Below the pieces are notes generated by a model. It had not been told where the DNA came from. It was given only the letters and a program-made list of their open reading frames with translations, and did not search any database. Shown in pieces: positions 3,498-60,632 of a stretch of 64,000 nucleotides of DNA. The stretch spans positions 572,340 through 636,339 of the forward strand of contig CP064982.1 of the NCBI GenBank assembly GCA_016699595.1. Reading direction: 5' to 3'. Numbering within the stretch: position 1 is the first letter of the stretch; each line of letters starts with the position of its first letter. The DNA comes from a bacterium. Lineage in GTDB: Bacteria; Patescibacteriota; Dojkabacteria; GCA-016699595. The position numbers and the translations under genes are program-made.

Positions 3498-4454
3498 TCA
3501 ATTTTTACTTGACTTCTCTTTTTTATCAGTTTTGGCAGCCTCTGGATTCTGTTCAAGCCATTGATCCTTCAACCATTTCAAACCTGCTTGTTGCATTGCA
3601 ACATTTTGATAGTACAATCTCGTTCTTTCATCTATACCTTCTATCTGATCAAAGTTAGGAATGTCTAGGTTTTCTTCCCTTACTATCTGTGAGAGTAAAA
3701 TCATTACCGGCAAATAATCTCTAACTTCCTTCTCCCATTGTGCCTCCAATTCTTCAAAGGTCAACTTTTGAGATTCTAAATACTGTTCTTTTGTCAAACC
3801 TAAATCATTTAGTTTCTCATCAAAATGTATTCTTTGGTGATTAACTTCAAGCGACACAGGGTAATCAAGGGCTTCATACTCAGAAGCTTGCAACACTTCC
3901 TGCAAAAGTTCAGAATTGAACCTTTCTTCTGATTCTCTCACCTTTGCTAAAGTAAGACGAGATTTGACTTCATCTGGACTTACATCAGTTAGTTTATTTT
4001 GTTGGATATATTGTTCTACCTCTGAGTCACTTACATCTTCAGCATTTTGTGAGGCACTTACTTGCACATTTTTCATGTCCGGTAACTTGATATACGGGGC
4101 ATAGCCATATGCAATTAATATTTTTAGTTGTTTTTTGTCTTGAATACTTTTCTGAATGTCATCATCAAATTTGATTTCAGGCTCAGTTATTGGAAGTATT
4201 TTTTCCTCGGTAAGCACATATCTATAAGCTTCATCTATGATTATTTGTAGTGCCTCCATAACTATTTCCCTACCGTACTGAGATTCAATAATTGACAAAG
4301 GAACCTTGCCTTCTCTAAAACCGTCTAACTTCAAGTGTTTTGCCTTCTTCTCCAAAGCGCTAACTTTTGCATTTTCAAACAAATCATATTGTAAAGTTAT
4401 ATCGAAAGTTATTTTCGAGCCACCGTTATTTGTTTTGGTATATTGTATATTCAT
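3498..4454 (-). CDS. tig: trigger factor (short form, apparently lacking the PPIase domain)
   Basis: N-terminal KLDGFREGKVPLSIIESQYGREIVMEALQIIIDEAYRYV matches the trigger-factor ribosome-binding domain signature (GFRxGKVP). At 318 aa, with no FKBP-like segment, it is shorter than the usual ~430 aa. Confidence 0.7.
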   Translation of the reverse strand: MNIQYTKTNNGGSKITFDITLQYDLFENAKVSALEKKAKHLKLDGFREGKVPLSIIESQYGREIVMEALQIIIDEAYRYVLTEEKILPITEPEIKFDDDIQKSIQDKKQLKILIAYGYAPYIKLPDMKNVQVSASQNAEDVSDSEVEQYIQQNKLTDVSPDEVKSRLTLAKVRESEERFNSELLQEVLQASEYEALDYPVSLEVNHQRIHFDEKLNDLGLTKEQYLESQKLTFEELEAQWEKEVRDYLPVMILLSQIVREENLDIPNFDQIEGIDERTRLYYQNVAMQQAGLKWLKDQWLEQNPEAAKTDKKEKSSKN

Positions 4455-4487
4455 GATAAATAGTTAATTTGATAATTTGCAATAAGT

Positions 4488-5054
4488 TTAATGTTCTGGA
4501 GGCAAATTATCTATTCCTGACCAGTCTCCTATAATATTGTCAAGCAATTGCTCCTCATCATCACCAATTTTGCCTAAGATATCTTCCTTATCCTCGACAT
4601 TATGTTCTTGAGTATCATCATGTATCAAAAAGAAATCATCATCTCGTACATCTTTTTGTTTCAAATTTTTTGACGTTAAATCTTCCAAATCTTCCGACTG
4701 ATTTTCATTATCAAAGAGTGTATCATAGTCTTCTGACTTGCTTGAAGATTTCCTAGTTAGATTGATTTGTGAATTCTGAGTAGGTTTCTTGCCAATATTG
4801 TCTCTATTTCTTTTAATTCTTTTATTCTGATTTACCTTCGACGTCTCTGTAATGGGTTTTGTTTTTTTGAAAGTAACTTTTGTAAAAGATAAATCCTTTT
4901 TGGGAATTTCTTTTGATATAACAGAGCTTTTTCCCTTACTCTTTGTAGTATTGCTTTGAGATTTCTTCGTAATGATAGCTTCCTTATTTGATTTTGTTGA
5001 ATTAGACACCAGAGAATTCTTTGCCTTTGATGAGATAATTTTTTTCTTTGCCAT
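4488..5054 (-). CDS. hypothetical protein with a basic K/S-rich N-terminus and an acidic C-terminus
   Basis: 188-aa ORF beginning MAKKKIISSKAKNS... with many KS/KT repeats. The second half is Asp/Glu-rich. Confidence 0.45.
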   Translation of the reverse strand: MAKKKIISSKAKNSLVSNSTKSNKEAIITKKSQSNTTKSKGKSSVISKEIPKKDLSFTKVTFKKTKPITETSKVNQNKRIKRNRDNIGKKPTQNSQINLTRKSSSKSEDYDTLFDNENQSEDLEDLTSKNLKQKDVRDDDFFLIHDDTQEHNVEDKEDILGKIGDDEEQLLDNIIGDWSGIDNLPPEH

Positions 5055-5197
5055 TTCAGTAATTGTTTGTTACAATCAGTTGCGTATTAAATCATAATTA
5101 TATCCCTGTGTCAATATCAGTTGAATTTGTCGGTTACAGATAATTTTGATGTTGATCTTGCTTTATTTTGTGTGTCATTATCAAACATCACAAATGA

Positions 5198-5278
5198 GCC
5201 GAGGTGGCGAAATGGTAGACGCACTACCTTGAGGTGGTAGCGAGTAACATCATGCAGGTTCAAGTCCTGTCCTCGGTA
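5198..5278 (+). tRNA. tRNA-Leu (anticodon GAG) with a long variable arm
   Basis: Acceptor gccgagg/cctcggt. Anticodon stem-loop ctacc-ttGAGgt-ggtag. Variable arm cgagtaacatcatgc. T-arm gcagg-ttcaagt-cctgt. Confidence 0.8.
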
Positions 5279-5326
5279 TTTGATGTTTTTTGTAGACGAA
5301 TTACTTCTGTTATGGTATGATTTCAT

Positions 5327-5461
5327 ATGCCTCAAGATAATTCAACACTAGTTAATGATGATATAACACTGGAAGATTTGAATAAGTTGATTACTAAACT
5401 TGAAGAGGAATTACTAAAAAGTGCTTCAGATTCAAAGGCTTCTGAAAACTATGATAGTTAG
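5327..5461 (+). CDS. possible small acidic protein (44 aa) between tRNA genes
   Basis: ATG...TAG ORF encoding MPQDNSTLVNDDITLEDLNKLITKLEEELLKSASDSKASENYDS. Too short for the ORF track and has no homology signal, so it is speculative. Confidence 0.15.
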   Translation: MPQDNSTLVNDDITLEDLNKLITKLEEELLKSASDSKASENYDS

Positions 5462-5471
5462 GTTTGTACTT

Positions 5472-5545
5472 GGGATCATAGCTCAATTGGTTAGAGCACT
5501 CGCCTGTCACGCGAGAGGTTGCCGGTTCGATCCCGGTTGGTCCCG
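5472..5545 (+). tRNA. tRNA-Asp (anticodon GUC)
   Basis: Acceptor gggatca/tggtccc. Anticodon stem-loop ctcgc-ctGTCac-gcgag. T-loop ggttcgatcc. Confidence 0.85.
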
Positions 5546-5677
5546 CATCTAATACCTCACAGTACATCTATCAAATCTGGAATAATATATAAAGATATTG
5601 ATGCTCGGAATTATCTATCCTTCTCCTGCTCCCTATGGTTGGGTTGCTTGCAAAATTTCAGAATTTACCCAAATCAC

Positions 5678-5706
5678 TTGATGATAAGTTATCTATGATG
5701 TATACT
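5678..5706 (+). promoter_or_regulatory. sigma70-like promoter (TTGATG-17 nt-TATACT) upstream of tRNA-Ser
   Basis: -35 hexamer ttgatg at 5678-5683, a 17-nt spacer, then -10 hexamer tatact at 5701-5706, which is 12 nt before the tRNA 5' end. Confidence 0.45.
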
Positions 5707-5718
5707 CTAAGAACTATT

Positions 5719-5806
5719 GGAGGGTTACCCAAGTGGCTGAAGGGGAGGGTTTGCTAAACCCTTAGTAGGAGCAATCCTAGCGAGAGTTCGAATCTCTCAC
5801 CCTCCG
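5719..5806 (+). tRNA. tRNA-Ser (anticodon GCU) with a long variable arm
   Basis: Acceptor ggagggt/accctcc. Anticodon stem-loop agggt-ttGCTaa-accct. Long extra arm. T-loop gttcgaatc. Confidence 0.8.
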
Positions 5807-5816
5807 AATTAATCTT

Positions 5817-6908
5817 ATGAAAATCCTTATACTTCACGATTATCTCACAGTTTTTGGTGGAGCTGAGCAAGTTCTACTAAGTTTATTGGAGGTTTTTCCA
5901 AGTGCACAAATCTATACTTCAACTCTTTGGAAAGATGCTTTACCTCAAAACTTCGTAGACATTTTGAATAATCACTCATACAAAGAGAGCTTTCTAAAGT
6001 TTCTACCAAAACGAAAATCCTTGATTCCATTTTACCGAAAGATTGCTTTTCTCTCGTTTTTGTTTCTTGATCTAGATGATTTCGACATTATCATTGCAAA
6101 TACTTCAGGACCTGCAACTTGGTGCATAAGGCATAAATCTAAAGCAAAGCTAATTGCTTATTATCATAAGATACCTTCTTTTTCGTTTTTCCCTACAAAA
6201 AATATTTTGAAATTACTCTTGCATAAATTGGATAGCTTTTTCATAAAAAGATTTGATGTAGTTATTACAAATTCAAAGTTCAATCAGTCAAACTTCAGAA
6301 AGGTATTTGATATAAACGCTCAGGTAGTTTATCCAGTTGTACAGTTGGAACAAAATGCTATCCCTACCAAAAAAGAGGATTTTTTTCTTTTTGTGGGTCG
6401 GCTTGAAAAATACAAAGGTATCACAGAAATAGTTCAGTCTTGCATTGATAAAGGTAAAAAGCTTATTGTGGTAGGCAAAGGTTCGTTGATGCCTAAAAAT
6501 GATAGTACTACTAGTAGCAAGAAAACATTACCAATTCATGAGTTAATTGAATACAGGGGCTTTGTAAGCGAAAAGGAGAAGTTTGAATTGTTTCGCAAAG
6601 CTAAGGCATTTATCACTGCTGGAGGGGATAGAGAAGAATTTGGTATCACTGCACTTGAGTCTATTTTCTGTCTAACCCCAGTTATAGCTCATAAAAGAGG
6701 AGGTGTTGTTGAACTCGTGAGAGAGTTTGATGGCAAATCAGGAAATGCATTTCTTTTTGACCAAATGACTGTCCAAGACATCAGTAACACTATTGAAAAG
6801 TTTGAAAGTAATAGAGAAATTATTACAAATAATTTTCATCTCCTTGACCATAACCTATTCTCACACGCAACATTTCAAACTAATTTACTAAAAATCATAA
6901 AGCTCTAA
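5817..6908 (+). CDS. glycosyltransferase family 1 (GT4-like)
   Basis: MKILILHDYLTVFGGAEQVLLSL start. FVGRLEKYKGI and EEFGITALESI match the GT-B family-1 E-x7-E region. Confidence 0.75.
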   Translation: MKILILHDYLTVFGGAEQVLLSLLEVFPSAQIYTSTLWKDALPQNFVDILNNHSYKESFLKFLPKRKSLIPFYRKIAFLSFLFLDLDDFDIIIANTSGPATWCIRHKSKAKLIAYYHKIPSFSFFPTKNILKLLLHKLDSFFIKRFDVVITNSKFNQSNFRKVFDINAQVVYPVVQLEQNAIPTKKEDFFLFVGRLEKYKGITEIVQSCIDKGKKLIVVGKGSLMPKNDSTTSSKKTLPIHELIEYRGFVSEKEKFELFRKAKAFITAGGDREEFGITALESIFCLTPVIAHKRGGVVELVREFDGKSGNAFLFDQMTVQDISNTIEKFESNREIITNNFHLLDHNLFSHATFQTNLLKIIKL

Positions 6909-7570: not shown

Positions 7571-7640
7571 TAATTTCAACCTTTGTTGGTAAAATCACTT
7601 TTTAGTTACATTGTATAGAAATTTTAATTCAAGAAATTTT

Positions 7641-8057
7641 ATGAATAAATATACTGATATAACAAATTCATTTTTGAGAAAATGGCCATCTTTTTCCACC
7701 GGGGATACTGTCTCTGTGACATACAAAATCGACGAGAATAGAACTCAGACTTTCACCGGCATTGTTCTTTATGTCAAAGGGTCGGGGATTTCTGCTACAT
7801 TTTGCGTTAGGAAAATTGGAGCAAATTCTATAGGTGTGGAAAAAATACTTCCTTTGCATTCCCCTGTAATTACGGAGATAAAGGTTGAAAAGCGAGGTAA
7901 AGTTCGAAGAAACAAGATCTTTTATATGAGAGAGAGGGTTGGAAAATCTGCACTTAAGATCACAGAAGATAAGAACTATGTAGAGCCAGAAGCATTCGAA
8001 GTAATTGAAGAAACACCTAGAAGTGAAGAAGTATTTACAGTTGCTACAGAAGATTAG
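7641..8057 (+). CDS. rplS: 50S ribosomal protein L19 (bL19)
   Basis: FSTGDTVSVTYKIDENRTQTFTGIVLYVKGSGISATFCVRKIGANSIGVEKILPLHSPVITEIKVEKRGKVRRNKIFYMRERVGKSA matches L19 throughout. The ATG at 7641 is preferred over the track's TTG at 7611. Confidence 0.85.
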   Translation: MNKYTDITNSFLRKWPSFSTGDTVSVTYKIDENRTQTFTGIVLYVKGSGISATFCVRKIGANSIGVEKILPLHSPVITEIKVEKRGKVRRNKIFYMRERVGKSALKITEDKNYVEPEAFEVIEETPRSEEVFTVATED

Positions 8058-8102
8058 GTTTATTAACTTTATATAAAAAGATTCAAAATAATTAAACACC
8101 TT

Positions 8103-8174
8103 GGGAGCGTAGCTCAATGGTAGAGCAGTTGCCTTTTAAGCAATTGGTTCTGGGTTCGAGTCCCGGCGCTCTCA
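8103..8174 (+). tRNA. tRNA-Lys (anticodon UUU)
   Basis: Acceptor gggagcg/cgctctc, discriminator A. Anticodon stem-loop gttgc-ctTTTaa-gcaat. T-arm ctggg-ttcgagt-cccgg. Confidence 0.8.
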
Positions 8175-8390
8175 AATTCCGATTTTTCACGCAGTATCCA
8201 AATGACCTAAGTTTGGAAAGTGGAAGCGAGAAACAACTCGTTAAAATAAAGAGTATATTAAGGTGGTACCGTTCCAATTCGTGACTATAAGTATAATGCA
8301 TAAATTTGCTTGATATTTATAATCAAAATTTGAACCCTTAAGCAATTTCTAAATCAAATTAGATTTCGCTTGAGGGTTTTTTTGTTAATT
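8175..8390 (+). promoter_or_regulatory. candidate T-box riboswitch leader (ultrashort Stem I, CCU specifier) upstream of the UDG-like/UDG-like/proS operon
   Basis: AUUAAGGUGGUACCG at 8257-8271 is a close match to the T-box consensus AAUUAGGGUGGNACCGCG. The proposed antiterminator is AAGG / UGGUACC bulge / GUUC (8260-8274) pairing with GAAC-CCUU (8332-8339). A competing terminator lies at 8333-8383. The hairpin ccaaa-UGACCUAAG-tttgg (8198-8216) displays CCU followed by A in its loop, as in the ultrashort Stem I of actinobacterial ileS T-boxes. Confidence 0.4.
8333..8383 (+). terminator. intrinsic terminator-like hairpin plus U-tract (the terminator arm of the candidate T-box)
   Basis: aacccttaagc (8333-8343) pairs with gcttgagggtt (8368-8378) as an 11-bp stem containing one G·U and a 24-nt loop. 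It is followed by ttttttt (8377-8383), 18 nt before the ATG at 8401. Confidence 0.4.
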
Positions 8391-8400
8391 GAAATATTTA

Positions 8401-9180
8401 ATGAGTATTATTACATACACAAAGAAAGAATTAGGGTCATATACTTGTAGGCTCGACTTAGATCAAGTTTTTAATAATAGCACTGAAAGAGTTAGGTTTG
8501 AATCTAAATGGTTGGATTTTATGAATTCAGATATTTGGAACTCAGAAGTCTTTTGTAAAGATAAAAATATAATTCAATATTACCATAAATCCTGGATTCC
8601 AGAAAAACCTTCAAGGAAGCCCAAACTACTTTTACTCGCTGGAAATCCAGCACCACACTCTACTTATAAAAGCGTTTGTTTTGCCCAGGAAAATAATAAA
8701 GGGGAACATAGGTTTTGGAAGGTTTTGAGAGAATCAAATATACTCGAAATAAATTCTCGATTAGATGGTATAAAAACTCGTTTTTTTGATGAAGAATATA
8801 CCTCTGATTTTCAAGTCGGGATTGAAGTCTTATTCTCATTGCCTACCCCTGCAAGTCATAAACTTTGGTCGGGTGTTCAAGGGATCAAGAAACTGTTTGG
8901 ACAAAAAGCTTTTGAAAAGATATATATAGAAGAACAAGCAAGGCTTAGATTTGTTATCCAAAACTATTTGAATAATGGTGGAACAATCGTCACTTTTCAG
9001 AGAGATGTATTCGAATCAATCAGTAATATCAAGTATAATTATCAAAATGTACTTAAAGGAGAAACAGTTGTAAAGTTAGGATCTGTCACTATATATGCTG
9101 CACCACCAACGAGACTAATGTATTCTCAGTCAATGAAAGATGTACTACAGAAAGTTAATTCAATAGCTCAACATGGATAA
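8401..9180 (+). CDS. MUG/TDG-like (family 2-like) uracil-DNA glycosylase superfamily protein with an ~80-aa N-terminal extension
   Basis: KPKLLLLAGNPAPHSTYKSVCFAQENNKGEHRFWKVLRESNI parallels E. coli Mug [38 protein letters not shown] (G-x-NP motif, RFWKV). The ATG at 8401 is preferred over the track's TTG at 8389. Confidence 0.55.
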   Translation: MSIITYTKKELGSYTCRLDLDQVFNNSTERVRFESKWLDFMNSDIWNSEVFCKDKNIIQYYHKSWIPEKPSRKPKLLLLAGNPAPHSTYKSVCFAQENNKGEHRFWKVLRESNILEINSRLDGIKTRFFDEEYTSDFQVGIEVLFSLPTPASHKLWSGVQGIKKLFGQKAFEKIYIEEQARLRFVIQNYLNNGGTIVTFQRDVFESISNIKYNYQNVLKGETVVKLGSVTIYAAPPTRLMYSQSMKDVLQKVNSIAQHG

Positions 9181-9895
9181 AAAGGTTCAACTACAAAATT
9201 TGATTCAAGAAATGTCACAAGATTCTGCTTGTGAATCTATGTTTGAAATTAATAATGATAAAAACCTGATAAACCAATTCAAGTACTCCACCTTTATTCC
9301 AAATAAGTGGTTTGACTGGCCGAAGTACTCAGAATCAAAAATTATGATAGTTGGTCAAGATTGGGGACCGTACGCAATTTTGAAAAGAAAATTTATAGAC
9401 ACATTTGAAATAGAATCTAAAGGCAAAGATTTTGACTATGACAAATTCTTGTATCAAACATTCTCTTCAAGAACAGAAAAGTTTATACAAAAATCTATTG
9501 AATATTGGTTTGAGATAGTGCATCATACTCAGATGAATTTTCGAGATTGGGATAATTATTTTTTTACAATTGCAGTGATGTTTTGTAGATCTGGCAATTT
9601 ATTTAGAGGAAGCACTAATTTTGATGCAAAAAGATCTCTTGCAGTATCAAGGTACTATCTTAAAAAACAAATTGAAATAGTACAACCTCAAAAGATAATG
9701 ACCTTAGGAGGTCTATCTTTGAGACAAGTCTTTTCAATTTTAGGAATTGAAGATAAAAGAAAATTAAGTGAAATTGTATTGCATAATGATAAATTTAATT
9801 GTCAAGAAATCGAAATTTTCCCAAACTTTCACCCTGCTTCACATGTTGACAAGAGAATAATTAGAGACAAGTTTCAAAACATCATTCCTTACTAA
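9173..9895 (+). CDS. divergent uracil-DNA glycosylase superfamily protein
   Basis: A hydrophobic strand followed by GQDWGPY (KIMIVGQDWGPY) resembles UDG motif A (GQDPY). The C-terminal FPNFHPASH resembles motif B (HPSPLS). It overlaps the upstream gene by 8 nt, suggesting translational coupling. Confidence 0.45.
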   Translation: MDKKVQLQNLIQEMSQDSACESMFEINNDKNLINQFKYSTFIPNKWFDWPKYSESKIMIVGQDWGPYAILKRKFIDTFEIESKGKDFDYDKFLYQTFSSRTEKFIQKSIEYWFEIVHHTQMNFRDWDNYFFTIAVMFCRSGNLFRGSTNFDAKRSLAVSRYYLKKQIEIVQPQKIMTLGGLSLRQVFSILGIEDKRKLSEIVLHNDKFNCQEIEIFPNFHPASHVDKRIIRDKFQNIIPY

Positions 9896-9924: not shown

Positions 9925-11148
9925 ATGACATACACAAAAAACTTCATAAAAACAAAAAAAGAAATAAGTTCAGAAATCGAATCAAAAAATGCACAGCTCT
10001 TGATCAAAGGTGGATTCATCAGACCTCAAATGGCTGGAGTATATATTTATCTCCCACTTGGACTTAGAGTTTTGGAAAAAATTACAAATGTTGTTCGCAA
10101 ACATATGGACGAAATAGCTAGTGAAATGCGAATGACAGCACTACAACCAAGAGATATTTGGGAGAAAACAAATCGACTTGATACTGTAGATGTACTTATG
10201 AAAACAATTGGAGCAAATGAAGTTTCAAAACAAAAGTCTACAAACGAATATATACTTGGATGCACACACGAAGATGTATTGACAAATATGCTTACCGAGT
10301 TTGTCCAAGGTGAATCTGAACTTCCAATATATGTTTACCAAATCCAAAATAAATTTCGAAATGAAGCAAGAGCAAAATCTGGACTTATGCGCGGAAGAGA
10401 ATTTCTGATGAAAGATCTATACTCATTTCATACGACTTACGAGGATTTGATGAGATACTATGAGATCGTCAAACAAAAATACATAGATATATTTGAAGAG
10501 CTTGGAATTGGAAACGATACATTTGTAACATTAGCTTCGGGAGGAGATTTTACAGATAACTTTTCTCATGAATTTCAAATGATTCTTGAAAGTGGAGAAG
10601 ATGAGATACTTATTGATAGAACGAATAAAATTGCCTATAATCTTGAAATTCTCGACGAGAACAAGGCAAAAAAAGTTGATCTGGAAAATGCAAACAAACT
10701 TGGAGTTGATTTTTCAAAGCTAGAAAAGGTCAAGGCCTCTGAAGTGGGAAACATATTTCCAAATGAAACTAAGTACTCAAAACTACTTAATCTATCATAT
10801 ACAAATTCAGATGGCGTGAAAAAATACGTTCACATGGGAAGTTATGGCATCGGAGTCTCAAGACTTATGGGTGTGATTGCAGAGAAATTCCATGATCCAA
10901 AAGGACTTACTTGGCCAGAGAATGTAGCCCCTTTCAAGTATCATATATGTACACTCGCAAAATCCGAATCTGAACTTTGTTTCCAGAATGCAAGAAAGTT
11001 TTATGTTGAGCATGAAACAGAGTCTCTTTGGGATGATAGATTTGATACTGCAGCTGGAGAAAAATTTGCAGATGCTGATCTAATTGGATGTCCAGTGCGA
11101 ATTGTCTTCTCTGAAAGAAATCCTGACGGAGAATTTACAAAAAGATAA
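9925..11148 (+). CDS. proS: prolyl-tRNA synthetase, minimal form without the INS editing domain
   Basis: LLIKGGFIRPQMAGVYIYLPLGLRVLEKI start; class II motifs FRNEARAKSGLMRGREFLMKD and YVHMGSYGIGVSRLMGVIAE; C-terminal KFADADLIGCPVRIVF. Only 407 aa. Confidence 0.85.
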   Translation: MTYTKNFIKTKKEISSEIESKNAQLLIKGGFIRPQMAGVYIYLPLGLRVLEKITNVVRKHMDEIASEMRMTALQPRDIWEKTNRLDTVDVLMKTIGANEVSKQKSTNEYILGCTHEDVLTNMLTEFVQGESELPIYVYQIQNKFRNEARAKSGLMRGREFLMKDLYSFHTTYEDLMRYYEIVKQKYIDIFEELGIGNDTFVTLASGGDFTDNFSHEFQMILESGEDEILIDRTNKIAYNLEILDENKAKKVDLENANKLGVDFSKLEKVKASEVGNIFPNETKYSKLLNLSYTNSDGVKKYVHMGSYGIGVSRLMGVIAEKFHDPKGLTWPENVAPFKYHICTLAKSESELCFQNARKFYVEHETESLWDDRFDTAAGEKFADADLIGCPVRIVFSERNPDGEFTKR

Positions 11149-11639: not shown

Positions 11640-14600
11640 TTATTTCACATCTGCTATTGTTTGGAAAGATTTCTCAAGTTGAACCAATCTTTCTTCAAGA
11701 TCATGGATTTTTTGATCTTGTTTCTCAATTTTCTCTTCTGTATTGAGAACTTTGGATACAAGCACTTTGAAACTTGATTGCCCGTTAGCTAAAGTATCAA
11801 TTTGAACTTGTTGTTCTTGGACTGCATTTATCAAAGCATATATAATCGCATTTGAATCATACCTGTAGTAACCATCTTCTCCAAGACTAATCGTCCATTG
11901 GCCTAGTGCTGTTTGATTGATGTCTTGAGCTATAAGTCCAACATAACTTTTGTCATTATCTGGTGCATATATACTTTTGCCATTATATTTAAATGTCTTT
12001 GGATCAATTTTCATAATAGCATCTAGACCTATATCAAAATCTTTGATATCCTTTTTCAACCTTTCGTCAGACAAAACAGTCCAAGCACCTCCTCCAATTT
12101 TTTCTGCTGTTCCTGCACTTCCTACAAATCTTGCTACTTGAGTTCCATCTACAAAGAAGTTTAGCTCAGCATCAGCTAATGATGTGATTCCAGAGTCTGT
12201 ATCGCCTATACCATTGGCACCAAATACAATTCCAGATGTTTGTGAAGAACCTGAAACTATAGAACCTCCAGCTAATTGCAATGCTCCTTCTATCTTTGCA
12301 GATCCTGATACATGCAGCTTTTGTGTAGGTGAGGTAGTGCCTATACCAACATTGCCCATAATGTAAGAACTATTTGTGCCATTCACATGTAGTATGCCCT
12401 TTATATAGGAATCTCCAGCAGTACCATCTACTTCAAATTTGAGTACACCATCGTTTCCATAAAAAGCCCAACCTTGTGTTGCAGGAGAGACCCATACATC
12501 CGTATATCGACTAATGCCATCGAAATGTGTCATTATTGGCATAGAAGTTACATAATGATTTGCATCAACAATATATAATTTGGAATTTAGCGATAGCCTA
12601 ACATCTCCCATGACATCCAATTTGTAACTAGGTGTTGTCCCAATTCCGACTCTACTATTGACATCATCATAGTAAAGACTAGAGTTAGACTTCCATACAC
12701 TTGTATTTGCGTCATAATATAGTGTTTGTCCTTCAGTTGCTGTAGGTAGTGTTGGTATCGTTGTCCATGCTGTTCCAGTACCTGTTGTTTTAAGGTATTG
12801 TCCATTTGTACCTGCTACATTACTTGAATCATACAACGCTCCTTCTACCCTTGCAGATCCTGATACATGCAGCTTTTGTGTAGGTGAAGGAGTCCCTATA
12901 CCGACAGAACCGGTGCTTATATTTGTATTGACACCATTTATACCTGTCCCAAAAATCAAGTTACCTATACTAAGCTGATTTGATCCATCCAATATTGGGG
13001 CATCTATATTATATCCAATTAATATATTCCTAGAACCAGTAGTTTCTAACCTACCTGTAAAGTATCCAAGAAATACATTGTCGGCACCGCTTGTCAAAGT
13101 TTTTCCATTCATATAACCTATTAATGTATTGTTTCCACCTGTAGTCAAAGATAACCCTGATTGATATCCGACTAAAGTAGTATTACTGAAAGTTGATAAA
13201 CTATCTGTACCCCTGCCTGACTGAAGTCCAATTGCCACATTTACTTGACCAGTAGTAAATCTCAAAGCTTCACCACCTATTGCCGTATTATTTCCACCTG
13301 TAGTTTTAAGTAATGTATAATGACCTATAGCCACATTATTGTTTGTAGCACTGGAGTTATTGTACATTGCACCATTGCCGATTGCTATAGTATCAGTTAT
13401 AGTGGTAGACGATCCGAACAATACATTTGCACCGATTGCCACATTTCCAGTACCAGTTTTAACTGAGCTCAAGGCATTATAGCCTATTGCAGTGTTGATA
13501 TAACCAGTAGTGATCGATGTACCAGTATTATTTCCCATCAAAACGTTGAACTTGCCAAAACTACCTCCTGTCAGCGTCGTGCTATCCCCTGCATTATTCC
13601 CTGCAAAGAGATTCGATGCGTCATTAGATGTAATCTCAAGAAGTGCAATGCCTGCGCTATCTTGAAATTGCATCAAAGCCTTGTCTACGGTTTGAGTGGC
13701 ACTTGCTTTTATAATTACTTGCTCAATATTTTCATTTCCTGCTACGAGTAACTTAGCCCCTGGTGTCGGTGTCCCAATTCCGACTCTACTATTTACATCA
13801 TCATAGTAAAGACCAGAGTTAGACTTCCATACACTTGTATTTGCATCAAAATATAGTGTTTGTCCTTCATTTGCTGTAGGTAACAAAGATACTCCTGGAG
13901 CTAATACAGTCCAAGCTGTACCATTTCCAGTACTACTTAAGAACTGTCCATTTGTACCTGCTACATTACTTGAATCATACAATGCTCCTTCGATCCTTAC
14001 AGATCCTGATACATGCAGCTTCTGTGTAGGTGACGGAGTCCCTATACCAACAAAACCGGTGCCCGAGAAGGTTAAGCTATTGGTATTCAGATTTATATCT
14101 GTATTCTTCGTAAGATTCCCTCCTAGTTGGAAGTTAGATAGCGTAGATTGCGTTAAACCATTGTCAGAAGTGTACTTTGTATCTATATCAGCAACACACT
14201 CAAAACTAGATCCATTCCAAGAAAGTTTTTGATCTGATAAACAAACAGGTGAATCTACAGAAATAGTTCCAGTAGATGATATAGGTCCACCAGTAAGCCC
14301 AACTCCTGTAGAGAGACTTGTCAATGTGCCATTAGTTGTATTACTACATATCCAAGAGCTCGTCGTTAAGTCATATCTAAGAATCTGAGTATCACTGCAA
14401 GAATTTAGTGAGTATCTTACAGTATTTACTGCTATTACTTCAGCTTTTAGTGGACCTACTGCCGAGAAAGTAACCATTGAGCCTGGATTTATATTTTGTG
14501 AATTTGAGCCGTCAGTTACGACAAAATAACTATCCTCACAATCAAAACTTACTCCGCTCCATGTAAGCCTTTGGTTTGTTGCGCATGTATGTGCATCAAT

Positions 14601-16574
14601 TTGAAATGTAGTTCCAATCAAACTTACTCCATTTCCTGCATTATATGTAGTATCATTATCTGGTAATGTAATAGTATAAGTTGAACTATCTGACATAGTC
14701 AAATTCAAAGTTCTTAAAGTTCCACCAGATGTAACTGCACTTGTTGAAATCGTTGCAGAAGACAAAAACTTATCTGCCGGTAGCATTATAGAATTTACTA
14801 TGGAGTGACCATTTGTTCCAGTTATGGCTAATGTTCTAGTTTGAGAGTCATAGCTCAAATTTTGTGAATCTGCATCAATTATACTTTTCGATAAACTAGG
14901 AGTGCCATTCTGTCCCGTTAAATTGATTGTATGAGTGATTGCCCCAGTACCAGAATCTTGAATAGTCAAATCATCACTATATTTATCAAAATCATTAAAT
15001 GAAGTGCATGCCCATGAACTTGAATTGTATATTAAAAATTCTCCATTTGAACATGGGTTCAATGTAACTATAGGATTTTGCCCATTACTTACACCTATCA
15101 CACCTGAACCTGTAACTGACAATGTACCTGCATTCGAAATCTCATTTGATGAATCTATCCCAATACCATTACCTGCACTATAAATATACTTTGATTCAGG
15201 AATGCATACCCAATTTGAACCGTTGTACACGAGAAGTTCACTTGTGCTACAAGCTTTGAGACTAAAAACATTCGAGTTTAATGTTATACCATCACCAGAA
15301 GCATAGGTTGTATCGGCATCAAGATCTAGGGAACAAATCCAATCACTTCCATCATACTTCAATATCTCTCCACTTGAGCAAGGCTTAATAGAAAATACAT
15401 TTGAAGATAAAATTAAACCTGAACCAGAAGTGTAAATATCATTATCATCAGGAATATTTAGAGCAATATCAGGCAATCCTCCTGAACGAGTTAATGTCAA
15501 AATCCTATAACCTGATTGCAATTCAGACAAAGTAGCTCCTGTCAAATATAACTCTGCAGGCAATGCCGGCAGTATTATCGAACCACCATTTGTCAATGAG
15601 ACAATGTTTCCATCAATTGTTAATTCCTGTGAATCTGTAGGAATAATAACTGAATTTCCACTCGATAATGTCAAAGTGCCATTATTATAGTTTAGGCTTT
15701 GCAAAACTTGATTTGGCAAAACTATAGAATTGCCATTTGATATAGTTATTGTATTGCCAATAATTTTCAAATCTTGACTATCTTTGCTAAATTTCAAAAT
15801 CATATTTGCAAGGTCGAGTTGATTCCCTCTTTCAATGCTTAAATTTGAACCTTCTAAGCTGATCTTTTGATTGTCACTAGCAAAAGCGGCTTCTACCTCT
15901 GCGCCTTGCAGATAACTTCTAATAACGCTTTCTAGAAACTCCGTTCTTTGTTGAATCAAGTCGCTTTTCTCGTCATTACTCAAGAATTTACCTACAGACA
16001 AATCTTGAATCAAATTGAGATTTGATTTTGTACCGATAAATTCACTGTACACTATATCTTTGCATCCAAGCGATGTTGGGTAAAATGAAATATCATTTTG
16101 AGTACCAAAAAATCCTTTCAAATTTGCAATAAATCCTTGTTGAATAAGCCTACGACTGCAAGCAACATTGTCAAATGTGCCTTTTGCATCATCGTGTCCT
16201 TGACATGATGAAACTTCGTTTCCATCTTCAGACATGGTTGAATAGCAGAGCTGCAAGTATGACTTTTTTGGCAAAGCAAAGATACCCGGATTAATGTTTA
16301 TATCAAATTTACCATTCCTGATTTCAACATTATCAAAATCCCAACTTTCTATTAGTCTTGCATCGGAAGAATTTTTATCAAATACTAAGATTCTGAAATT
16401 GGTTGCTTTTGTTTTATCGTTTCCAAAGTCACCATTAATCGTTACTTTGAGTGGTTTTGCAAAAGTTAATAAAAAAAAGATTGCTACTAGTAGAGCAAGA
16501 AGCAATAATTTAACAGAAAGGCGACTTCTCGCATTTGCAATATTCAATTTTTTTGAATTAATATAGTTTGCCAA
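11640..16574 (-). CDS. giant (1644 aa) tail-fibre-like surface protein with a C-terminal S74-type intramolecular-chaperone domain
   Basis: N-terminal signal/TM segment LSVKLLLLALLVAIFFLLTFA. Three VGIGTPSPTQKLHVSGS-(R/K)-EGAL modules. Seven or more CxxxxLxYxGSxWxC repeats. Gly/Asn/Thr-rich beta-helix-like tracts. C-terminal SDERLKKDIKDFDIGLDAIMKIDPKTFKYNG...VGLIAQDINQ...GYYRYDSNAIIYALINAV matches the peptidase S74 / endosialidase chaperone domain, and is followed by a coiled-coil tail. Confidence 0.8.
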   Translation of the reverse strand: MANYINSKKLNIANARSRLSVKLLLLALLVAIFFLLTFAKPLKVTINGDFGNDKTKATNFRILVFDKNSSDARLIESWDFDNVEIRNGKFDININPGIFALPKKSYLQLCYSTMSEDGNEVSSCQGHDDAKGTFDNVACSRRLIQQGFIANLKGFFGTQNDISFYPTSLGCKDIVYSEFIGTKSNLNLIQDLSVGKFLSNDEKSDLIQQRTEFLESVIRSYLQGAEVEAAFASDNQKISLEGSNLSIERGNQLDLANMILKFSKDSQDLKIIGNTITISNGNSIVLPNQVLQSLNYNNGTLTLSSGNSVIIPTDSQELTIDGNIVSLTNGGSIILPALPAELYLTGATLSELQSGYRILTLTRSGGLPDIALNIPDDNDIYTSGSGLILSSNVFSIKPCSSGEILKYDGSDWICSLDLDADTTYASGDGITLNSNVFSLKACSTSELLVYNGSNWVCIPESKYIYSAGNGIGIDSSNEISNAGTLSVTGSGVIGVSNGQNPIVTLNPCSNGEFLIYNSSSWACTSFNDFDKYSDDLTIQDSGTGAITHTINLTGQNGTPSLSKSIIDADSQNLSYDSQTRTLAITGTNGHSIVNSIMLPADKFLSSATISTSAVTSGGTLRTLNLTMSDSSTYTITLPDNDTTYNAGNGVSLIGTTFQIDAHTCATNQRLTWSGVSFDCEDSYFVVTDGSNSQNINPGSMVTFSAVGPLKAEVIAVNTVRYSLNSCSDTQILRYDLTTSSWICSNTTNGTLTSLSTGVGLTGGPISSTGTISVDSPVCLSDQKLSWNGSSFECVADIDTKYTSDNGLTQSTLSNFQLGGNLTKNTDINLNTNSLTFSGTGFVGIGTPSPTQKLHVSGSVRIEGALYDSSNVAGTNGQFLSSTGNGTAWTVLAPGVSLLPTANEGQTLYFDANTSVWKSNSGLYYDDVNSRVGIGTPTPGAKLLVAGNENIEQVIIKASATQTVDKALMQFQDSAGIALLEITSNDASNLFAGNNAGDSTTLTGGSFGKFNVLMGNNTGTSITTGYINTAIGYNALSSVKTGTGNVAIGANVLFGSSTTITDTIAIGNGAMYNNSSATNNNVAIGHYTLLKTTGGNNTAIGGEALRFTTGQVNVAIGLQSGRGTDSLSTFSNTTLVGYQSGLSLTTGGNNTLIGYMNGKTLTSGADNVFLGYFTGRLETTGSRNILIGYNIDAPILDGSNQLSIGNLIFGTGINGVNTNISTGSVGIGTPSPTQKLHVSGSARVEGALYDSSNVAGTNGQYLKTTGTGTAWTTIPTLPTATEGQTLYYDANTSVWKSNSSLYYDDVNSRVGIGTTPSYKLDVMGDVRLSLNSKLYIVDANHYVTSMPIMTHFDGISRYTDVWVSPATQGWAFYGNDGVLKFEVDGTAGDSYIKGILHVNGTNSSYIMGNVGIGTTSPTQKLHVSGSAKIEGALQLAGGSIVSGSSQTSGIVFGANGIGDTDSGITSLADAELNFFVDGTQVARFVGSAGTAEKIGGGAWTVLSDERLKKDIKDFDIGLDAIMKIDPKTFKYNGKSIYAPDNDKSYVGLIAQDINQTALGQWTISLGEDGYYRYDSNAIIYALINAVQEQQVQIDTLANGQSSFKVLVSKVLNTEEKIEKQDQKIHDLEERLVQLEKSFQTIADVK

Positions 16575-23510: not shown

Positions 23511-25592
23511 ATGTCAACATTTTCAGATCTCAAAAACAAATTTATATACTTCTGGCAGTCAAAAGGCGCAAAAGAGATACCAGGATTATCGCTTGTTCCA
23601 CAAGGTGATTCTACTTTACTTTTTGTCAATTCTGGTATGTTTCCACTTGTGCCATACTTACTTGGAGAAAAACATCCACTCGGAACTAGACTTTGCAATG
23701 TCCAGAGATGCCTTAGAACTGAAGATCTTGAAGATATCGGAGATACAAGACATTTAACCTTGTTTCATATGATCGGAAATTGGAGTTTAGGAGATTTTTT
23801 CAAAAAAGAACAAATACCGTTTGTACTTGAGCTTTATGTTGAGCATTTTGGACTTGATCCAAAACGAATATATGTTTCAGTTTTTGAAGGTGACGAGTCA
23901 GCTCGAAGAGACGAAGAATCTATCGAGCTTTGGAAGCAAGCTTTTGCAAAATATGGAGTAGTTGCAGAGTATAATCCAGATCCATATTCAATCTCAGAAA
24001 CTCTAGAGGGAAATGCAAACTTTAGAATATTTAGTTATCCCAAAAAGAAAAATTGGTGGACAAGAGGTGAAGTTGCTGGAGAACCTGGAGGTCCAGATAG
24101 TGAAACATTTTATGATATGGGAACTCAAGCTGAAGAATATGAAGAGAAATTACATATAAATGGAGATAATGGGAGATTTGTAGAAATTGGAAACAATGTT
24201 TTCATGCAGTATAAATATGAAGTCCCCATTGCTAAGGGGGATACGGCAACGCCGAGTGGGTTTTGGTTAGAAATGCATAAGAAAAATGTAGACTTCGGAG
24301 GTGGTTTGGATAGAATTGTGATGTGCGCAGAAAACAAGTTTGATATATTTGAAACTACACTTTATTGTGAAGTTATCGATTATCTAGTTACTAAAACTGG
24401 TATTCCGTATAAAACTACTTCCTTTGTGAAGGTGGCACAAGGTGACGGAAGAGGTTTTAAGCGAAGTTATAGAATAATTGCAGATCATATAAAAGCTTCA
24501 GTTTTCCTACTTGCTGACGGAGTTTTCCCAAGTAACAAAGATCAAGGCTATATCCTGCGAAGATTAATTCGTAGAATGATAGTACAAGGTTATAATCTTG
24601 GAATTAAAGATAAGTTTGTGAAAGAAATTGCCGAGATAATGATAGGTTTGAACTCAGATCAAGATCAAATTATTTCAAATAAAACCAATATAATTTTAGA
24701 ACTTGAAAAAGAAGAAGATAAATTTAGGGTGACATTAGAAAGTGGAATAAAAGAATTTGAAAAATTGATCCTTCCTTTTAGGAAGGGGAACCACAAAGTG
24801 GTGGAAGGTTTAAATCCAAATATTGCTCTCTTACAAACGAATACTAACGAAATAGGATTCTCTGGAAAAGACTTATTCTATCTTTATGAGTCTTTCGGGT
24901 TTCCAATTGAGCAAAGTTTAGAATTATTGAAACAAAACAATGTTGATTTTGATGAAAGTAAGTTGAAAAGCGAGTTTGATAATGCAAAACTAGAACATTC
25001 CAATTTATCACGCACTAATTCTGAGCAAAAATTCAAAGGTGGACTTGCAGACAATTCAGAGATTGTAACTGCACTCCACACTACTCACCATCTTTTACTC
25101 GCTGCACTTCAAAAAGTTTTATGCTCAAAAGATATACACCAAAAAGGTAGTAATATAACTTCTGAAAGACTTCGAATTGATTTCAATTTCGATAGAAAAT
25201 TAACTACAGAAGAATTAGCAAAAATAGAATCCCAAGTTCAAGAGTGGATTGATCAAGGATTACAAGTTGAAAGACTAGAAATGAAAAAAGAAGAAGCAGA
25301 GAAACTTGGTGCAGAGCATGAGTTTGGAGCTAAGTATCCAGATATGGTTTCAGTTTATAAAATATTTTATCCTTCCTGGAAGGAAGGTGTCACTCAAAGC
25401 CCGACGGAAGGTTTAACCTCCAGTCTTTCAGACAGCCTCCTACAAGGAGGCATCATAAGTCTTGAGTTTTGTGGCGGTCCTCATGTCGCAAATTCAAAAG
25501 ATATAGCTAAATTTGGAAGTTTCAAAGTTTTGAAAGAAGAAGCAAGTTCATCTGGAATTAGAAGAATAAAGGCTGGATTGGTTAGGCAGTAA
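23511..25592 (+). CDS. alaS: alanyl-tRNA synthetase lacking the C-Ala domain
   Basis: LVPQGDSTLLFVNSGM, RCLRTEDLEDIGDTRHLTLFHMIGNWSLGDFFK, editing-domain HTTHHLLLAALQKV, and C-terminal CGGPHVANSKDIAKFGSFKV. 693 aa. Confidence 0.9.
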   Translation: MSTFSDLKNKFIYFWQSKGAKEIPGLSLVPQGDSTLLFVNSGMFPLVPYLLGEKHPLGTRLCNVQRCLRTEDLEDIGDTRHLTLFHMIGNWSLGDFFKKEQIPFVLELYVEHFGLDPKRIYVSVFEGDESARRDEESIELWKQAFAKYGVVAEYNPDPYSISETLEGNANFRIFSYPKKKNWWTRGEVAGEPGGPDSETFYDMGTQAEEYEEKLHINGDNGRFVEIGNNVFMQYKYEVPIAKGDTATPSGFWLEMHKKNVDFGGGLDRIVMCAENKFDIFETTLYCEVIDYLVTKTGIPYKTTSFVKVAQGDGRGFKRSYRIIADHIKASVFLLADGVFPSNKDQGYILRRLIRRMIVQGYNLGIKDKFVKEIAEIMIGLNSDQDQIISNKTNIILELEKEEDKFRVTLESGIKEFEKLILPFRKGNHKVVEGLNPNIALLQTNTNEIGFSGKDLFYLYESFGFPIEQSLELLKQNNVDFDESKLKSEFDNAKLEHSNLSRTNSEQKFKGGLADNSEIVTALHTTHHLLLAALQKVLCSKDIHQKGSNITSERLRIDFNFDRKLTTEELAKIESQVQEWIDQGLQVERLEMKKEEAEKLGAEHEFGAKYPDMVSVYKIFYPSWKEGVTQSPTEGLTSSLSDSLLQGGIISLEFCGGPHVANSKDIAKFGSFKVLKEEASSSGIRRIKAGLVRQ
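24768..24812. repeat. copy 3 of a ~65-bp hairpin repeat family, in-frame inside alaS
   Basis: atccttcctttt-aggaagg-ggaaccac-aaa-gtggtggaaggttt: ccttcc/ggaagg arms plus an inner hairpin. It encodes LPFRKGNHKVVEGLN within the intact alaS ORF. Confidence 0.6.
25369..25434. repeat. copy 1 of the same repeat family, in-frame inside alaS
   Basis: atccttcctggaaggaaggtgtcactcaaagcccgacggaaggtttaacctccagtctttcagac. It shares atccttcct..aggaaggtgtc..caaag..gacggaaggtt..cagtcttt with the 33776 copy, and encodes YPSWKEGVTQSPTEGLTSSLSD. Confidence 0.65.
25510..25592 (+). repeat. direct repeat A (the native alaS 3' end)
   Basis: aatttggaagtttcaaagttttgaaagaagaagcaagttcatctggaattagaagaataaaggctggattggttaggcagtaa reappears at 27422-27503 with 4-6 mismatches. 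Confidence 0.8.
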
Positions 25593-60575: not shown

Positions 60576-60632
60576 AGCCTATTATGATATATAGTGTTTA
60601 TTATAAGTCGGCACCACCCTTGTCGGTAAGTT

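Follow-up and report, generated by a model that had tools for sequence, protein, structure and literature searches.

We identified a leader at positions 8186-8383 that we regard, with good but not complete confidence, as a predicted proline-specific T-box transcription attenuator governing read-through into the prolyl-tRNA synthetase gene proS. Positions are those of the window, i.e., the whole 64-kb stretch of DNA that was analysed, which comes from a Patescibacteria-like MAG. The leader starts 10 nt 3' of a tRNA-Lys(UUU) gene; no terminator was found between the two, and tRNA-Lys and the leader are therefore probably co-transcribed. Table 1 lists the elements of the leader and the genes that follow it.

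Table 1. Features of the predicted proline T-box leader and its operon (window numbering)
Feature	Position	Strand	Evidence or remark
tRNA-Lys(UUU) gene	8102-8175	+	72.4 bits; context only
Ultrashort Stem I, two helices	8186-8224	+	39 nt; covarying helices
Stem I outer helix	UUCAC 8186-8190 with GUGGA 8220-8224	+	fold, covariation
Stem I internal loop	GCAGUAU 8191-8197 opposite AAA 8217-8219	+	K-turn position, degenerate
Stem I inner helix	CCAAAU 8198-8203 with GUUUGG 8211-8216	+	covariation
Upstream hairpin CCAAA(U)-GACCUAA-(G)UUUGG	8198-8216	+	CCU 8206-8208, A 8209
Specifier loop GACCUAA, apical	8204-8210	+	7 nt; CCU 8206-8208, then purine A8209
Hairpin 2, (G)CGAG-AAACAA-CUCG(U)	8226-8241	+	A-rich loop; conserved; Stem IIA/B position
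Purine-rich linker AAAAUAAAGAGUAUA	8243-8257	+	conserved
T-box-like sequence AUUAAGGUGGUACCG	8257-8271	+	seen in the sequence
T-box core	8258-8274	+	A1 5' strand, bulge, A2 5' strand
Helix A1	AAGG 8260-8263 with CCUU 8336-8339	+	extendable: UUAAGG 8258-8263 with CCUUAA 8336-8341
Bulge UGGUACC, 7 nt	8264-8270	+	UGGU would pair with tRNA 3' ACCA
Helix A2	GUUC 8271-8274 with GAAC 8332-8335	+	
57-nt insertion, antiterminator (A2) loop	8275-8331	+	window-specific compared with relatives
A2 and A1 3' strands	GAAC 8332-8335, CCUUAA 8336-8341	+	common to terminator 5' arm
Intrinsic terminator	8333-8383	+	stem 8333/8335-8343 with 8368-8376/8378, U-tract 8377-8383
First regulated gene, 259 aa, TDG/MUG-like DNA glycosylase fold	8401-9180	+	AlphaFold and Foldseek
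Second regulated gene, UDG superfamily	9173-9895	+	Pfam UDG match
proS, bacterial-type prolyl-tRNA synthetase	9925-11148	+	TIGR00409, 347.8 bits, above cut-off

All the sequence features described in the first-pass annotation (T-box sequence, A1, bulge, A2, terminator, and CCU hairpin) were found where it had placed them. Its ultrashort Stem I with a terminal-loop specifier also stood, although the small hairpin it described is part of a larger two-helix element. The CCU triplet occupies positions 3-5 of the 7-nt loop, the register of an anticodon. Hairpin 2 showed neither a recognisable F-box nor a pseudoknot. In the linker, AGAG (8250-8253) aligns with the purines flanking Stem III of canonical T-boxes; Stem III is absent from the window leader and these purines remain. 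Within the 64-kb window there is a single exact copy of GGTGGNACCG, where 0.03 would be expected by chance. The antiterminator loop, put at about 55 nt in the annotation, measures 57 nt, compared with roughly 2-12 nt in relatives; the insertion folds on itself, can lengthen A2 (AAUU 8276-8279 with AAUU 8327-8330), and is not repeated elsewhere within the window. The terminator pairs CCCUUAAGC (8335-8343) with GCUUGAGGG (8368-8376), plus A8333/A8334 with U8377/U8378; its hairpin has a predicted dG of -17.7 kcal/mol and is followed by seven U residues. Antiterminator and terminator are mutually exclusive since 8332-8341 serves both folds. Folding gave a whole-leader energy of -52.2 kcal/mol in the terminator state vs -40.7 kcal/mol when the antiterminator was forced, and the leader fold (225 nt) is more stable than dinucleotide shuffles (z = -4.3). 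No SD-like sequence is paired in the window leader, and the U-tract ends 17 nt 5' of the inferred ATG at 8401.

Next, the leader was compared with those of the closest relatives found, five in number, whose ProRS proteins are 64-69% identical to the window ProRS. This gave six independent leaders (window, L038, L043, L040, L049, and L172). As the annotation had proposed that conservation upstream of proS be checked in relatives, we note that all five further leaders sit 5' of proS, that the genes between leader and proS vary in every case (the L172 leader adjoins proS directly), and that proS is the sole downstream gene common to all of the relatives' leaders. The leader also occurs in relatives whose upstream gene encodes SSB or an unknown protein and whose fetched flanks gave no tRNA gene. 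The five further leaders retain the GGUGGUACC core, the paired antiterminator and terminator, and a proline codon in an apical loop of 7 nt. A1, the 7-nt UGGUAC(C/A) bulge, and A2 are kept in all six, the bulge being invariant except for its last base (A in L040). The six terminators range from -17.7 to -25.6 kcal/mol, carry 5-8 U, and overlap the A1/A2 3' strands. Hairpin 2 keeps its stem with changed sequences (CGAG/CUCG, CUAG/CUAG, CAAG/CUUG, and UGAG/CUCA among the six).

Leader identity between the window and L038 is 73% (z = 10.3 vs shuffles), although it is only 67% for the corresponding ProRS pair. Their GACCUAA loop and bulge are identical while the surrounding stems have changed in a compensatory manner: at 3 of 6 inner-helix pairs, in hairpin 2, in A2, and throughout the terminator. 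The L038 Stem I helices read UUCACA/UGUGAG and AAAGAU/GUCUUU. At the K-turn site the window has GCAGUAU/AAA with no tandem G-A pairs and L038 has AUUGAU/UGA; the K-turn is canonical (3-nt bulge, tandem GA/GA, and Y-Y mismatch) in L038, L172, L049, L043, and L040. L172, L049, L043, and L040 possess a Stem II whose GAACUG/AAUAA loops are S-turn-like, and none of these four has a recognisable Stem IIA/B pseudoknot; Stem II is absent in the window and L038, where 3 nt replace 36 model positions. Stem III is kept in L040 and deleted in the other five leaders, where the flanking (A/U)GAG and AAUU stay. The window-type architecture thus far comprises two full sequences (window and L038) and one terminator fragment (L185), whose terminator 3' arm is identical to that of the window; that contig begins inside the arm and holds 18 nt of leader. 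Other contigs reached by way of UDG, ORF1, and ProRS homologues had no usable leader: the sequence of L170, the window's 95% relative, begins within ORF1, L171 has no linkage to proS, and L173 and L174 are too short. Farther afield, a T-box core upstream of proS was absent in 37 GTDB Patescibacteria loci and in the loci of P0007 and P0009, and these loci gave no true match to covariance model R1 (the matches in L015 and L008 are coding DNA).

Covariation was assessed on a hand-curated core of six rows fitted to the structure by hand, since MAFFT on the full leaders misaligned the window-type Stem I and the L040 3' half. In this core, 98.2% of the cells are paired and both sides change in 12 of the 19 pairs. 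None of 500 shuffles reached the observed value, and slid partners were only 24-55% paired. Two-sided change is found in all eight pairs of Stem I helices 1 and 2, and compensatory changes in all five helices. In the Rfam scan suggested in the first-pass annotation, RF00230 produced no match on the window at its gathering score, nor at E<=10 on 8000-8600, and none at E<=10 on L038. Against a gathering score of 93 bits, three of the relatives gave full-length RF00230 matches that are significant yet sub-threshold: L049 (38.3 bits, E 2.5e-5; 2.3e-7 on 241 nt), L043 (31.1 bits, E 0.0018), and L042 (24.8 bits, E 0.074), the last with the same leader as L040. The RF00230 alignment retains the K-turn, Stem II, and the antiterminator; in L049, 76 positions of upper Stem I are replaced by the 9 nt G-UUCCCAG-C, so that the apical loop falls exactly at the start of upper Stem I. 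Because relatives score with RF00230, the null result on the window is not decisive. A covariance model built from L172, L049, and L043 only found L038 at 47.6 bits (E 1.6e-9) and L040 at 57.9 bits. The same model, whose E-values are rough, gave the window leader 22.5 bits as its sole match in the window, a score that is weak alone in view of a spurious 22.1-bit match in coding DNA. The annotation had named two findings that together would speak against it, lack of an Rfam hit and lack of conservation; the first applies to the window, the second does not apply to the five further leaders, and since both were required and the leader is conserved, the annotation is not refuted. Conservation, covariation, and the Rfam matches of relatives instead support its proline-specific T-box with an ultrashort, terminal-loop Stem I before a proS operon. 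The T-box itself is very probably real, a stripped-down form that standard annotation models overlook. A metagenome search with the pattern AWATTRAGGTGGTACCGT yielded, among the matches listed, nearly all canonical low-GC T-boxes plus chance matches in coding sequence, with no proS nearby and no new member; two pattern scans of viral contigs returned nothing, or GC-rich chance matches only.

The amino-acid assignment follows from the specifier loop. L038 carries GACCUAA like the window, and in the richer relatives (L172, L049, L043, and L040) the loop is U(U/C)CCCAG, where CCC and a following A occupy the matching register. The two forms have only CC.A in common, and proline is the only amino acid that can be read in one register across all six leaders. 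Among the proline specifiers in TBDB (PMC7778990), CCU (0.60) ranks first in use and CCC (0.14) third. The leaders with Stem II carry CCC and those without it carry CCU, which is consistent with the structural explanation of the 'C rule', as this depends on Stem II (PMC7583486). Neither the window nor any of the fetched loci yielded a tRNA-Pro gene. The AlaRS, MetRS, and HisRS genes in the window have no T-box-like leader. A GGTGGTGCCG site at 60609 was also examined and is not a T-box leader.

From these elements we infer the following course of regulation. Transcription, probably running on from rplS/tRNA-Lys, would yield the short Stem I first, whose apical loop would offer CCU-A, and the anticodon of tRNA-Pro would meet the specifier loop by G/C-rich kissing-loop pairing. 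The 3' ACCA of an uncharged tRNA could then pair with UGGU of the 7-nt bulge and stabilise the antiterminator through A1 (8258-8263/8336-8341) and A2 (8271-8274/8332-8335). Without uncharged tRNA, the terminator (8333-8378 plus U7), as the more stable fold, would form and transcription would end before the operon. We slightly favour the reading of the window and L038 leaders as working transcriptional T-boxes shrunk to about 115-200 nt, consisting of a specifier hairpin, a small hairpin, and a Stem III-less discriminator, with neither an elbow platform nor a Stem II S-turn. If so, this would be the smallest natural T-box architecture, in which anticodon pairing (aided by the G/C-rich proline codon-anticodon helix) and NCCA pairing would suffice for sensing during transcription. 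The candidate phyla radiation would also, as far as the literature shows, gain its first T-box lineage.

The likeness to canonical transcriptional T-boxes (RF00230; Bacillus tyrS and aaRS leaders of low-GC Firmicutes) lies in the core, where AAGGUGGUACCGUU in the window compares with the consensus AGGGUGGNACCGCG. Over AAGG-UGGUACC-GUUC (8260-8274), 11 out of 14 positions match, and all three differences are in A1/A2, with the partners altered to match. The 7-nt UGGN bulge, A1/A2, the competing intrinsic terminator, a specifier codon followed by a purine, and control of an aminoacyl-tRNA synthetase gene are shared as well, and low-GC, Firmicutes-like metagenomic T-boxes among the matches listed share the exact AAAUUAAGGUGGUACCGUG...CCCUUA core with the window. 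The window differs in having no long Stem I (specifier side bulge with S-turn, AG bulge, and distal loop/platform) and no Stem II, IIA/B pseudoknot, or Stem III, scores below every Rfam threshold, and comes from a Patescibacteria-like MAG instead of Firmicutes. Short Stem I's bear the specifier in the apical loop (PMC7583486), as in the actinobacterial ultrashort-Stem-I ileS translational T-boxes (TBDB class II; Sherwood et al., 2015, summarised in PMC7583486). The similarity to this type drawn in the annotation holds for the apical-loop specifier on a platform-less short Stem I and, in the richer relatives, extends to the K-turn and to Stem II with S-turn-like loops. It does not extend to the output: the ileS type uses a Shine-Dalgarno sequestrator, whereas all six leaders here have a terminator with a U-tract. 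The amino acid and gene also differ (here proline and proS), only one of the six leaders has a Stem III, and Stem II, reported as essential in the ileS type, is missing in the window and L038. T-boxes of the glyQS type are likewise transcriptional, with a short linker between Stem I and the discriminator and no Stem II domain or IIA/B, but they have a full-length Stem I, whose platform stacks on the tRNA elbow, plus Stem III, and the window has neither. The Bacillus proBA/proI proline T-boxes share the CCU specifier (shown for B. licheniformis; PMC3858371); they are full-length class I and control biosynthetic genes, in which the window differs. A conserved, covarying T-box that joins an apical-loop specifier to a terminator combines features assigned until now to separate classes.

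These comparisons also bear on whether the window leader still works. In the current view, a long Stem I with a platform for rapid capture of the tRNA elbow is required in transcriptional T-boxes, and the Stem II domain becomes indispensable once Stem I is shortened, as it is in the translational T-boxes of Actinobacteria (PMC7583486). The window leader has no Stem III, and it also lacks the platform and Stem II, features that the literature ties to tRNA capture (PMC7583486), so that its affinity for tRNA may be too low. It might then be a decaying T-box relic that has lost specific tRNA-Pro binding, with a fixed leaky terminator holding operon expression at a low basal level and at most a bulge that senses any uncharged A73 tRNA. 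The degenerate K-turn, the 57-nt antiterminator-loop insertion seen only in the window, and the lack of an Rfam match on the window are in keeping with such decay. We nevertheless consider it unlikely: the window and L038 have identical specifier loops and bulges despite compensatory changes in the stems, a relic would not be expected to retain the loop and antiterminator pairing, and the insertion lengthens A2 without breaking it. Alternatively, ProRS or another protein could bind the hairpin loops and select between terminator and antiterminator, the T-box-like sequence being a structural remnant. Synthetases are known to autoregulate via operator hairpins in their own mRNA, e.g., E. coli thrS, and the 7-nt loop has the geometry of an anticodon loop. 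But the loop triplet (CCU/CCC) is a proline codon, complementary to tRNA-Pro, and does not mimic its anticodon (NGG), which favours tRNA pairing over synthetase binding; together with the tRNA 3'-end-specific UGGUACC bulge, invariant but for the last base in L040, and the recognition of the relatives as T-boxes by Rfam, this makes a protein-mediated attenuator very improbable. That the hairpin and U-tract simply terminate an rplS-tRNA-Lys unit, with the decamer and CCU hairpin coincidental, would suit a leader so close to a tRNA-Lys with no other terminator and with no Rfam match, but is scarcely credible and effectively refuted by conservation, given that the relatives' leaders always precede proS, occur also where the fetched flanks gave no tRNA gene, differ at too many positions to be assembly duplicates, and covary in five helices, with a decamer expected only 0.03 times per window.

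A functional T-box of the window type would set a lower bound on the requirements of a tRNA-sensing riboswitch and offer a compact engineering scaffold. It would also mean that Rfam-based annotation overlooks T-boxes in reduced genomes, and would add one more to the few predicted cis-regulatory RNAs of Patescibacteria-like bacteria, whose regulation is poorly known. Should the window form be only a relic, it would still add a new, divergent branch to a well-known family.

The operon downstream of the leader agrees with the UDG-like/UDG-like/proS order given in the first-pass annotation, with proS and the second gene assigned by sequence and the first gene at the fold level only. The window ProRS is of a form without the INS editing domain. 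The two DNA-glycosylase genes are passengers of the proS operon, and the first gene is not kept at the corresponding position in relatives. In L038, the gap between UDG and the next gene holds no convincing internal terminator (z = -1.6), although a weak one is possible. The ATG start of the first gene at 8401 was inferred from the length of P0210 (259 aa, 98% of the 263-aa ORF starting at TTG 8389). The product of the first gene had no sequence-level match, and profile-profile comparison with the UDG family also gave no signal; its AlphaFold model (pLDDT 91.6) matches the TDG/MUG uracil-DNA-glycosylase fold with a Foldseek E of 1.6e-6.

The leader upstream of proS in the window contains the elements that the first-pass annotation had read as a proline T-box: a T-box-like sequence, antiterminator helices A1 and A2 flanking a 7-nt bulge, a terminator overlapping both helices, and an upstream hairpin with a CCU loop (see the table). 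A single exact copy of the core GGTGGNACCG was found in 64 kb versus 0.03 expected, and the folding of the leader has a z-score of -4.3 against shuffles. For the whole leader, the forced antiterminator is less stable than the terminator state by 11.5 kcal/mol, as is usual where a T-box depends on tRNA to shift the equilibrium. A 57-nt insertion private to the window lies in the A2 loop, where it folds on itself and is able to lengthen A2; no second copy was found elsewhere in the window. The leader is followed by genes for a 259-aa protein (ORF1), a UDG-superfamily protein and prolyl-tRNA synthetase (ProRS, proS), within an AT-rich window whose gene content is like that of Patescibacteria/CPR MAGs.

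Few ProRS sequences in a protein search were >62% identical to that of the window. Five contigs fetched from the closest relatives (L038, L043, L049, L172, and L040, which has the same leader as L042) carry a homologous leader upstream of proS, a conservation that the first-pass annotation had asked to see checked; a sixth, L185, starts within the terminator 3' arm, which is identical to that of the window. The only constant gene downstream of the leaders is proS, while the intervening genes are different each time, and the slot between leader and proS appears to be a hotspot for insertions. Its occupants are mostly small DNA-repair or nuclease-like genes (UDGs, DUF559, DUF5680) plus a gene for a tRNA_bind protein. 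In L043, the stretch from the T-box terminator to the DUF559 gene holds two copies of a ~50-nt palindromic element (CTCCTCC...GGAGGAGTACCCGAAGGGGGAGGTGGTAGA; 5345-5545).

Elements of the leader, its neighbors and the genes between leader and proS
Feature	Contig or leader	Description	Position
rplS	window		7611-8057
tRNA-Lys(UUU)	window		8102-8175
Upstream hairpin	window	CCU then A in loop	8198-8216
T-box-like sequence	window	AUUAAGGUGGUACCG	8257-8271
A1	window	AAGG/CCUU; longer form UUAAGG/CCUUAA	8258-8263 with 8336-8341
Bulge	window	7 nt, UGGUACC	8264-8270
A2	window	GUUC/GAAC	8271-8274 with 8332-8335
Terminator	window	5' arm includes A1 and A2 3' strands; U7	5' arm 8333-8343; U7 8377-8383
Stem I	six leaders	outer helix, asymmetric internal loop, 5-7-bp inner helix, 7-nt apical loop	
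Hairpin 2	six leaders	CNAG/CUNG, A-rich loop	
Linker	six leaders	purine-rich, ends in (A/U)GAG	
Discriminator	six leaders	A1 4-6 bp, bulge UGGUACC (UGGUACA in L040), A2 3-7 bp	
Terminator	six leaders	-17.7 to -25.6 kcal/mol, 5-8 U; 5' arm reuses A1 and A2 3' strands	
Leader-proS slot	window	TDG/MUG-fold protein, then UDG	8401-9895 (+)
Leader-proS slot	L038	UDG, then 180-aa unknown	4436-5989
Leader-proS slot	L043	DUF559	5541-5939
Leader-proS slot	L049	DUF5680	1092-1568
Leader-proS slot	L040	called 101-aa ORF overlapping leader 3' end, then tRNA_bind protein	5259-5937
Leader-proS slot	L172	none; leader abuts proS	
Leader-proS slot	L185		29-1059

All six leaders share one plan of Stem I, hairpin 2, purine-rich linker, discriminator and terminator. 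The Stem I internal loop is a textbook K-turn in five of them (3-nt bulge, tandem G-A pairs, Y-Y mismatch) and is degenerate in the window. In a six-row core alignment, hand-trimmed and hand-fitted so that pair counts are biased towards structure, standard pairs fill 98.2% of cells and both sides have changed in 12 of 19 pairs; none of 500 shuffles was as good, and sliding the partners left 24-55% paired. The helices vary in sequence (inner-helix variants CCAAAU/GUUUGG, AAAGAU/GUCUUU, CUAGG/CCUAG and CAGAG/CUCUG) while loop and bulge stay constant. In the near-identical L172, L049 and L043 sequences, the Stem II 3' strand ACUACC is complementary to the T-box core GGUGGU (L049 ~958-963 with 1004-1009); the two are paired in minimum-free-energy folds and could form an additional alternative pairing.

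The Rfam scan proposed in the first-pass annotation gave no RF00230 match in the window, and relaxing the cut-off to E<=10 for a 600-nt slice did not change this. Three relatives matched RF00230 over its full length: L049 scored 38.3 bits (E 2.5e-5 for 26.5 kb searched with 4227 families, 2.3e-7 when only the leader was searched), L043 scored 31.1 bits (E 0.0018) and L042 24.8 bits (E 0.074). Each score falls well short of the 93-bit gathering score, so annotation pipelines would not report these T-boxes. The L049 alignment matches the Stem I base and K-turn (UGA and GAG on opposite strands), replaces the next 76 model positions (the entire upper Stem I) with G-UUCCCAG-C, matches Stem II with GAA... 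and ...AAUAA at the S-turn location, deletes Stem III while keeping the flanking (A/U)GAG and AAUU, and fits the antiterminator nearly perfectly. A covariance model trained only on L172, L049 and L043 detected the leaders of L038 (47.6 bits, E 1.6e-9, Stem II deleted) and L040 (57.9 bits). In the window, the leader was its only match, at 22.5 bits. This score is weak alone: the model cannot bridge the 57-nt insertion, and a spurious 22.1-bit match was seen elsewhere. Aligned directly, the window and L038 leaders are 73% identical (z = 10.3), with ProRS proteins only 67% identical. More distant ProRS relatives with a phylum-level name are all Paceibacteria, Saccharibacteria or Nomurabacteria, bar the two weakest matches. 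Upstream of proS in 37 GTDB species and at the loci of two more distant ProRS proteins (P0007, P0009), neither a T-box core nor a genuine match to the covariance model was found, which argues that the element is confined to one small clade.

The apical loops read GACCUAA (window, L038), UUCCCAG (L049, L043, L040) and UCCCCAG (L172). Only C3, C4 and A6 are invariant, as expected of codon positions 1-2 and the 3' purine of a proline specifier with a free wobble position, and no amino acid other than proline can be read in a single register across all six. Among proline T-boxes in TBDB, CCU accounts for 60% and CCC for 14% (PMC7778990), and the Bacillus proBA and proI T-boxes use CCU (PMC3858371). 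CCC is present in the four leaders retaining Stem II and CCU in the two without it. The third-position C preference of specifiers has been ascribed to Stem II S-turn contacts (PMC7583486), and the split, seen in two lineages only, is suggestively coherent with the proline assignment.

Apical-loop specifiers are found in short Stem I's, which are typical of Actinobacteria translational T-boxes (PMC7583486). Here, all six leaders combine the apical-loop Stem I with a terminator. Five of the six have no Stem III, and Stem II is missing as well in the window and L038. Compared with class I, the window element lacks the platform, Stem II and Stem III and falls below the Rfam threshold; compared with class II, it lacks Stem II and the SD sequestrator. 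The mechanistic core of specifier, UGGN bulge and antiterminator/terminator switch is present. A limited literature search returned no report of T-boxes in Patescibacteria, CPR or Saccharibacteria. Many low-GC canonical T-boxes among the matches listed (L050-L169, largely from human-gut metagenomes) have the exact AAAUUAAGGUGGUACCGUG...CCCUUA core, a shared variant from which one might speculate on a Firmicutes-like origin.

The conserved leaders, covariation, specifier pattern and antiterminator/terminator switch support the proline T-box interpretation, and the description that suits the element best is a transcriptional T-box specific for proline, with a new and minimal variant of the architecture. 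The leader is very probably a tRNA-Pro-responsive attenuator of proS; for the fully reduced form in the window, we lean slightly towards such a function. The one serious alternative sees the window-type leader as a decaying relic that has lost tRNA discrimination, and sufficient tRNA binding by so reduced an RNA during transcription is a prediction; however, loop, bulge and both alternative folds are kept between the window and L038 through many compensatory changes. A protein-operated attenuator is unlikely, since the loop presents a codon rather than an anticodon mimic, favoring tRNA-Pro pairing over ProRS binding. Conservation of the leader in other upstream contexts rules out a chance motif on the tRNA-Lys unit's terminator.

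The proline T-box may act as an internal attenuator within a longer transcript rather than at a transcript 5' end. The tRNA-Lys gene ends 10 nt before Stem I, with rplS close upstream and no terminator between tRNA-Lys and leader; in L172, L049 and L043 the leader comes equally close after an SSB gene. Within the 64-kb window, proS is the sole synthetase gene with a T-box-like leader, none being found for AlaRS (23511-25592), MetRS (28037-29515) or HisRS (33898-35154).

For ORF1 (8401-9180, +), sequence searches of Pfam, NCBIfam and PDB gave no match. Its family of ~50 proteins has the invariant motifs GNPAPHS and HRFW, and its confident AlphaFold model (pLDDT 91.6) matched thymine-DNA-glycosylase/MUG structures in Foldseek (E 1.6e-6); judged by this model, the family seems to be a branch of the UDG superfamily that has not been described. 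On the minus strand, 11640-16574 encodes a 1644-aa protein with several repeated blocks (...VGIGT.SPTQKLHVSGS...), whose C-terminal segment is presumably similar to the self-cleaving chaperone domain found in phage tail spikes.
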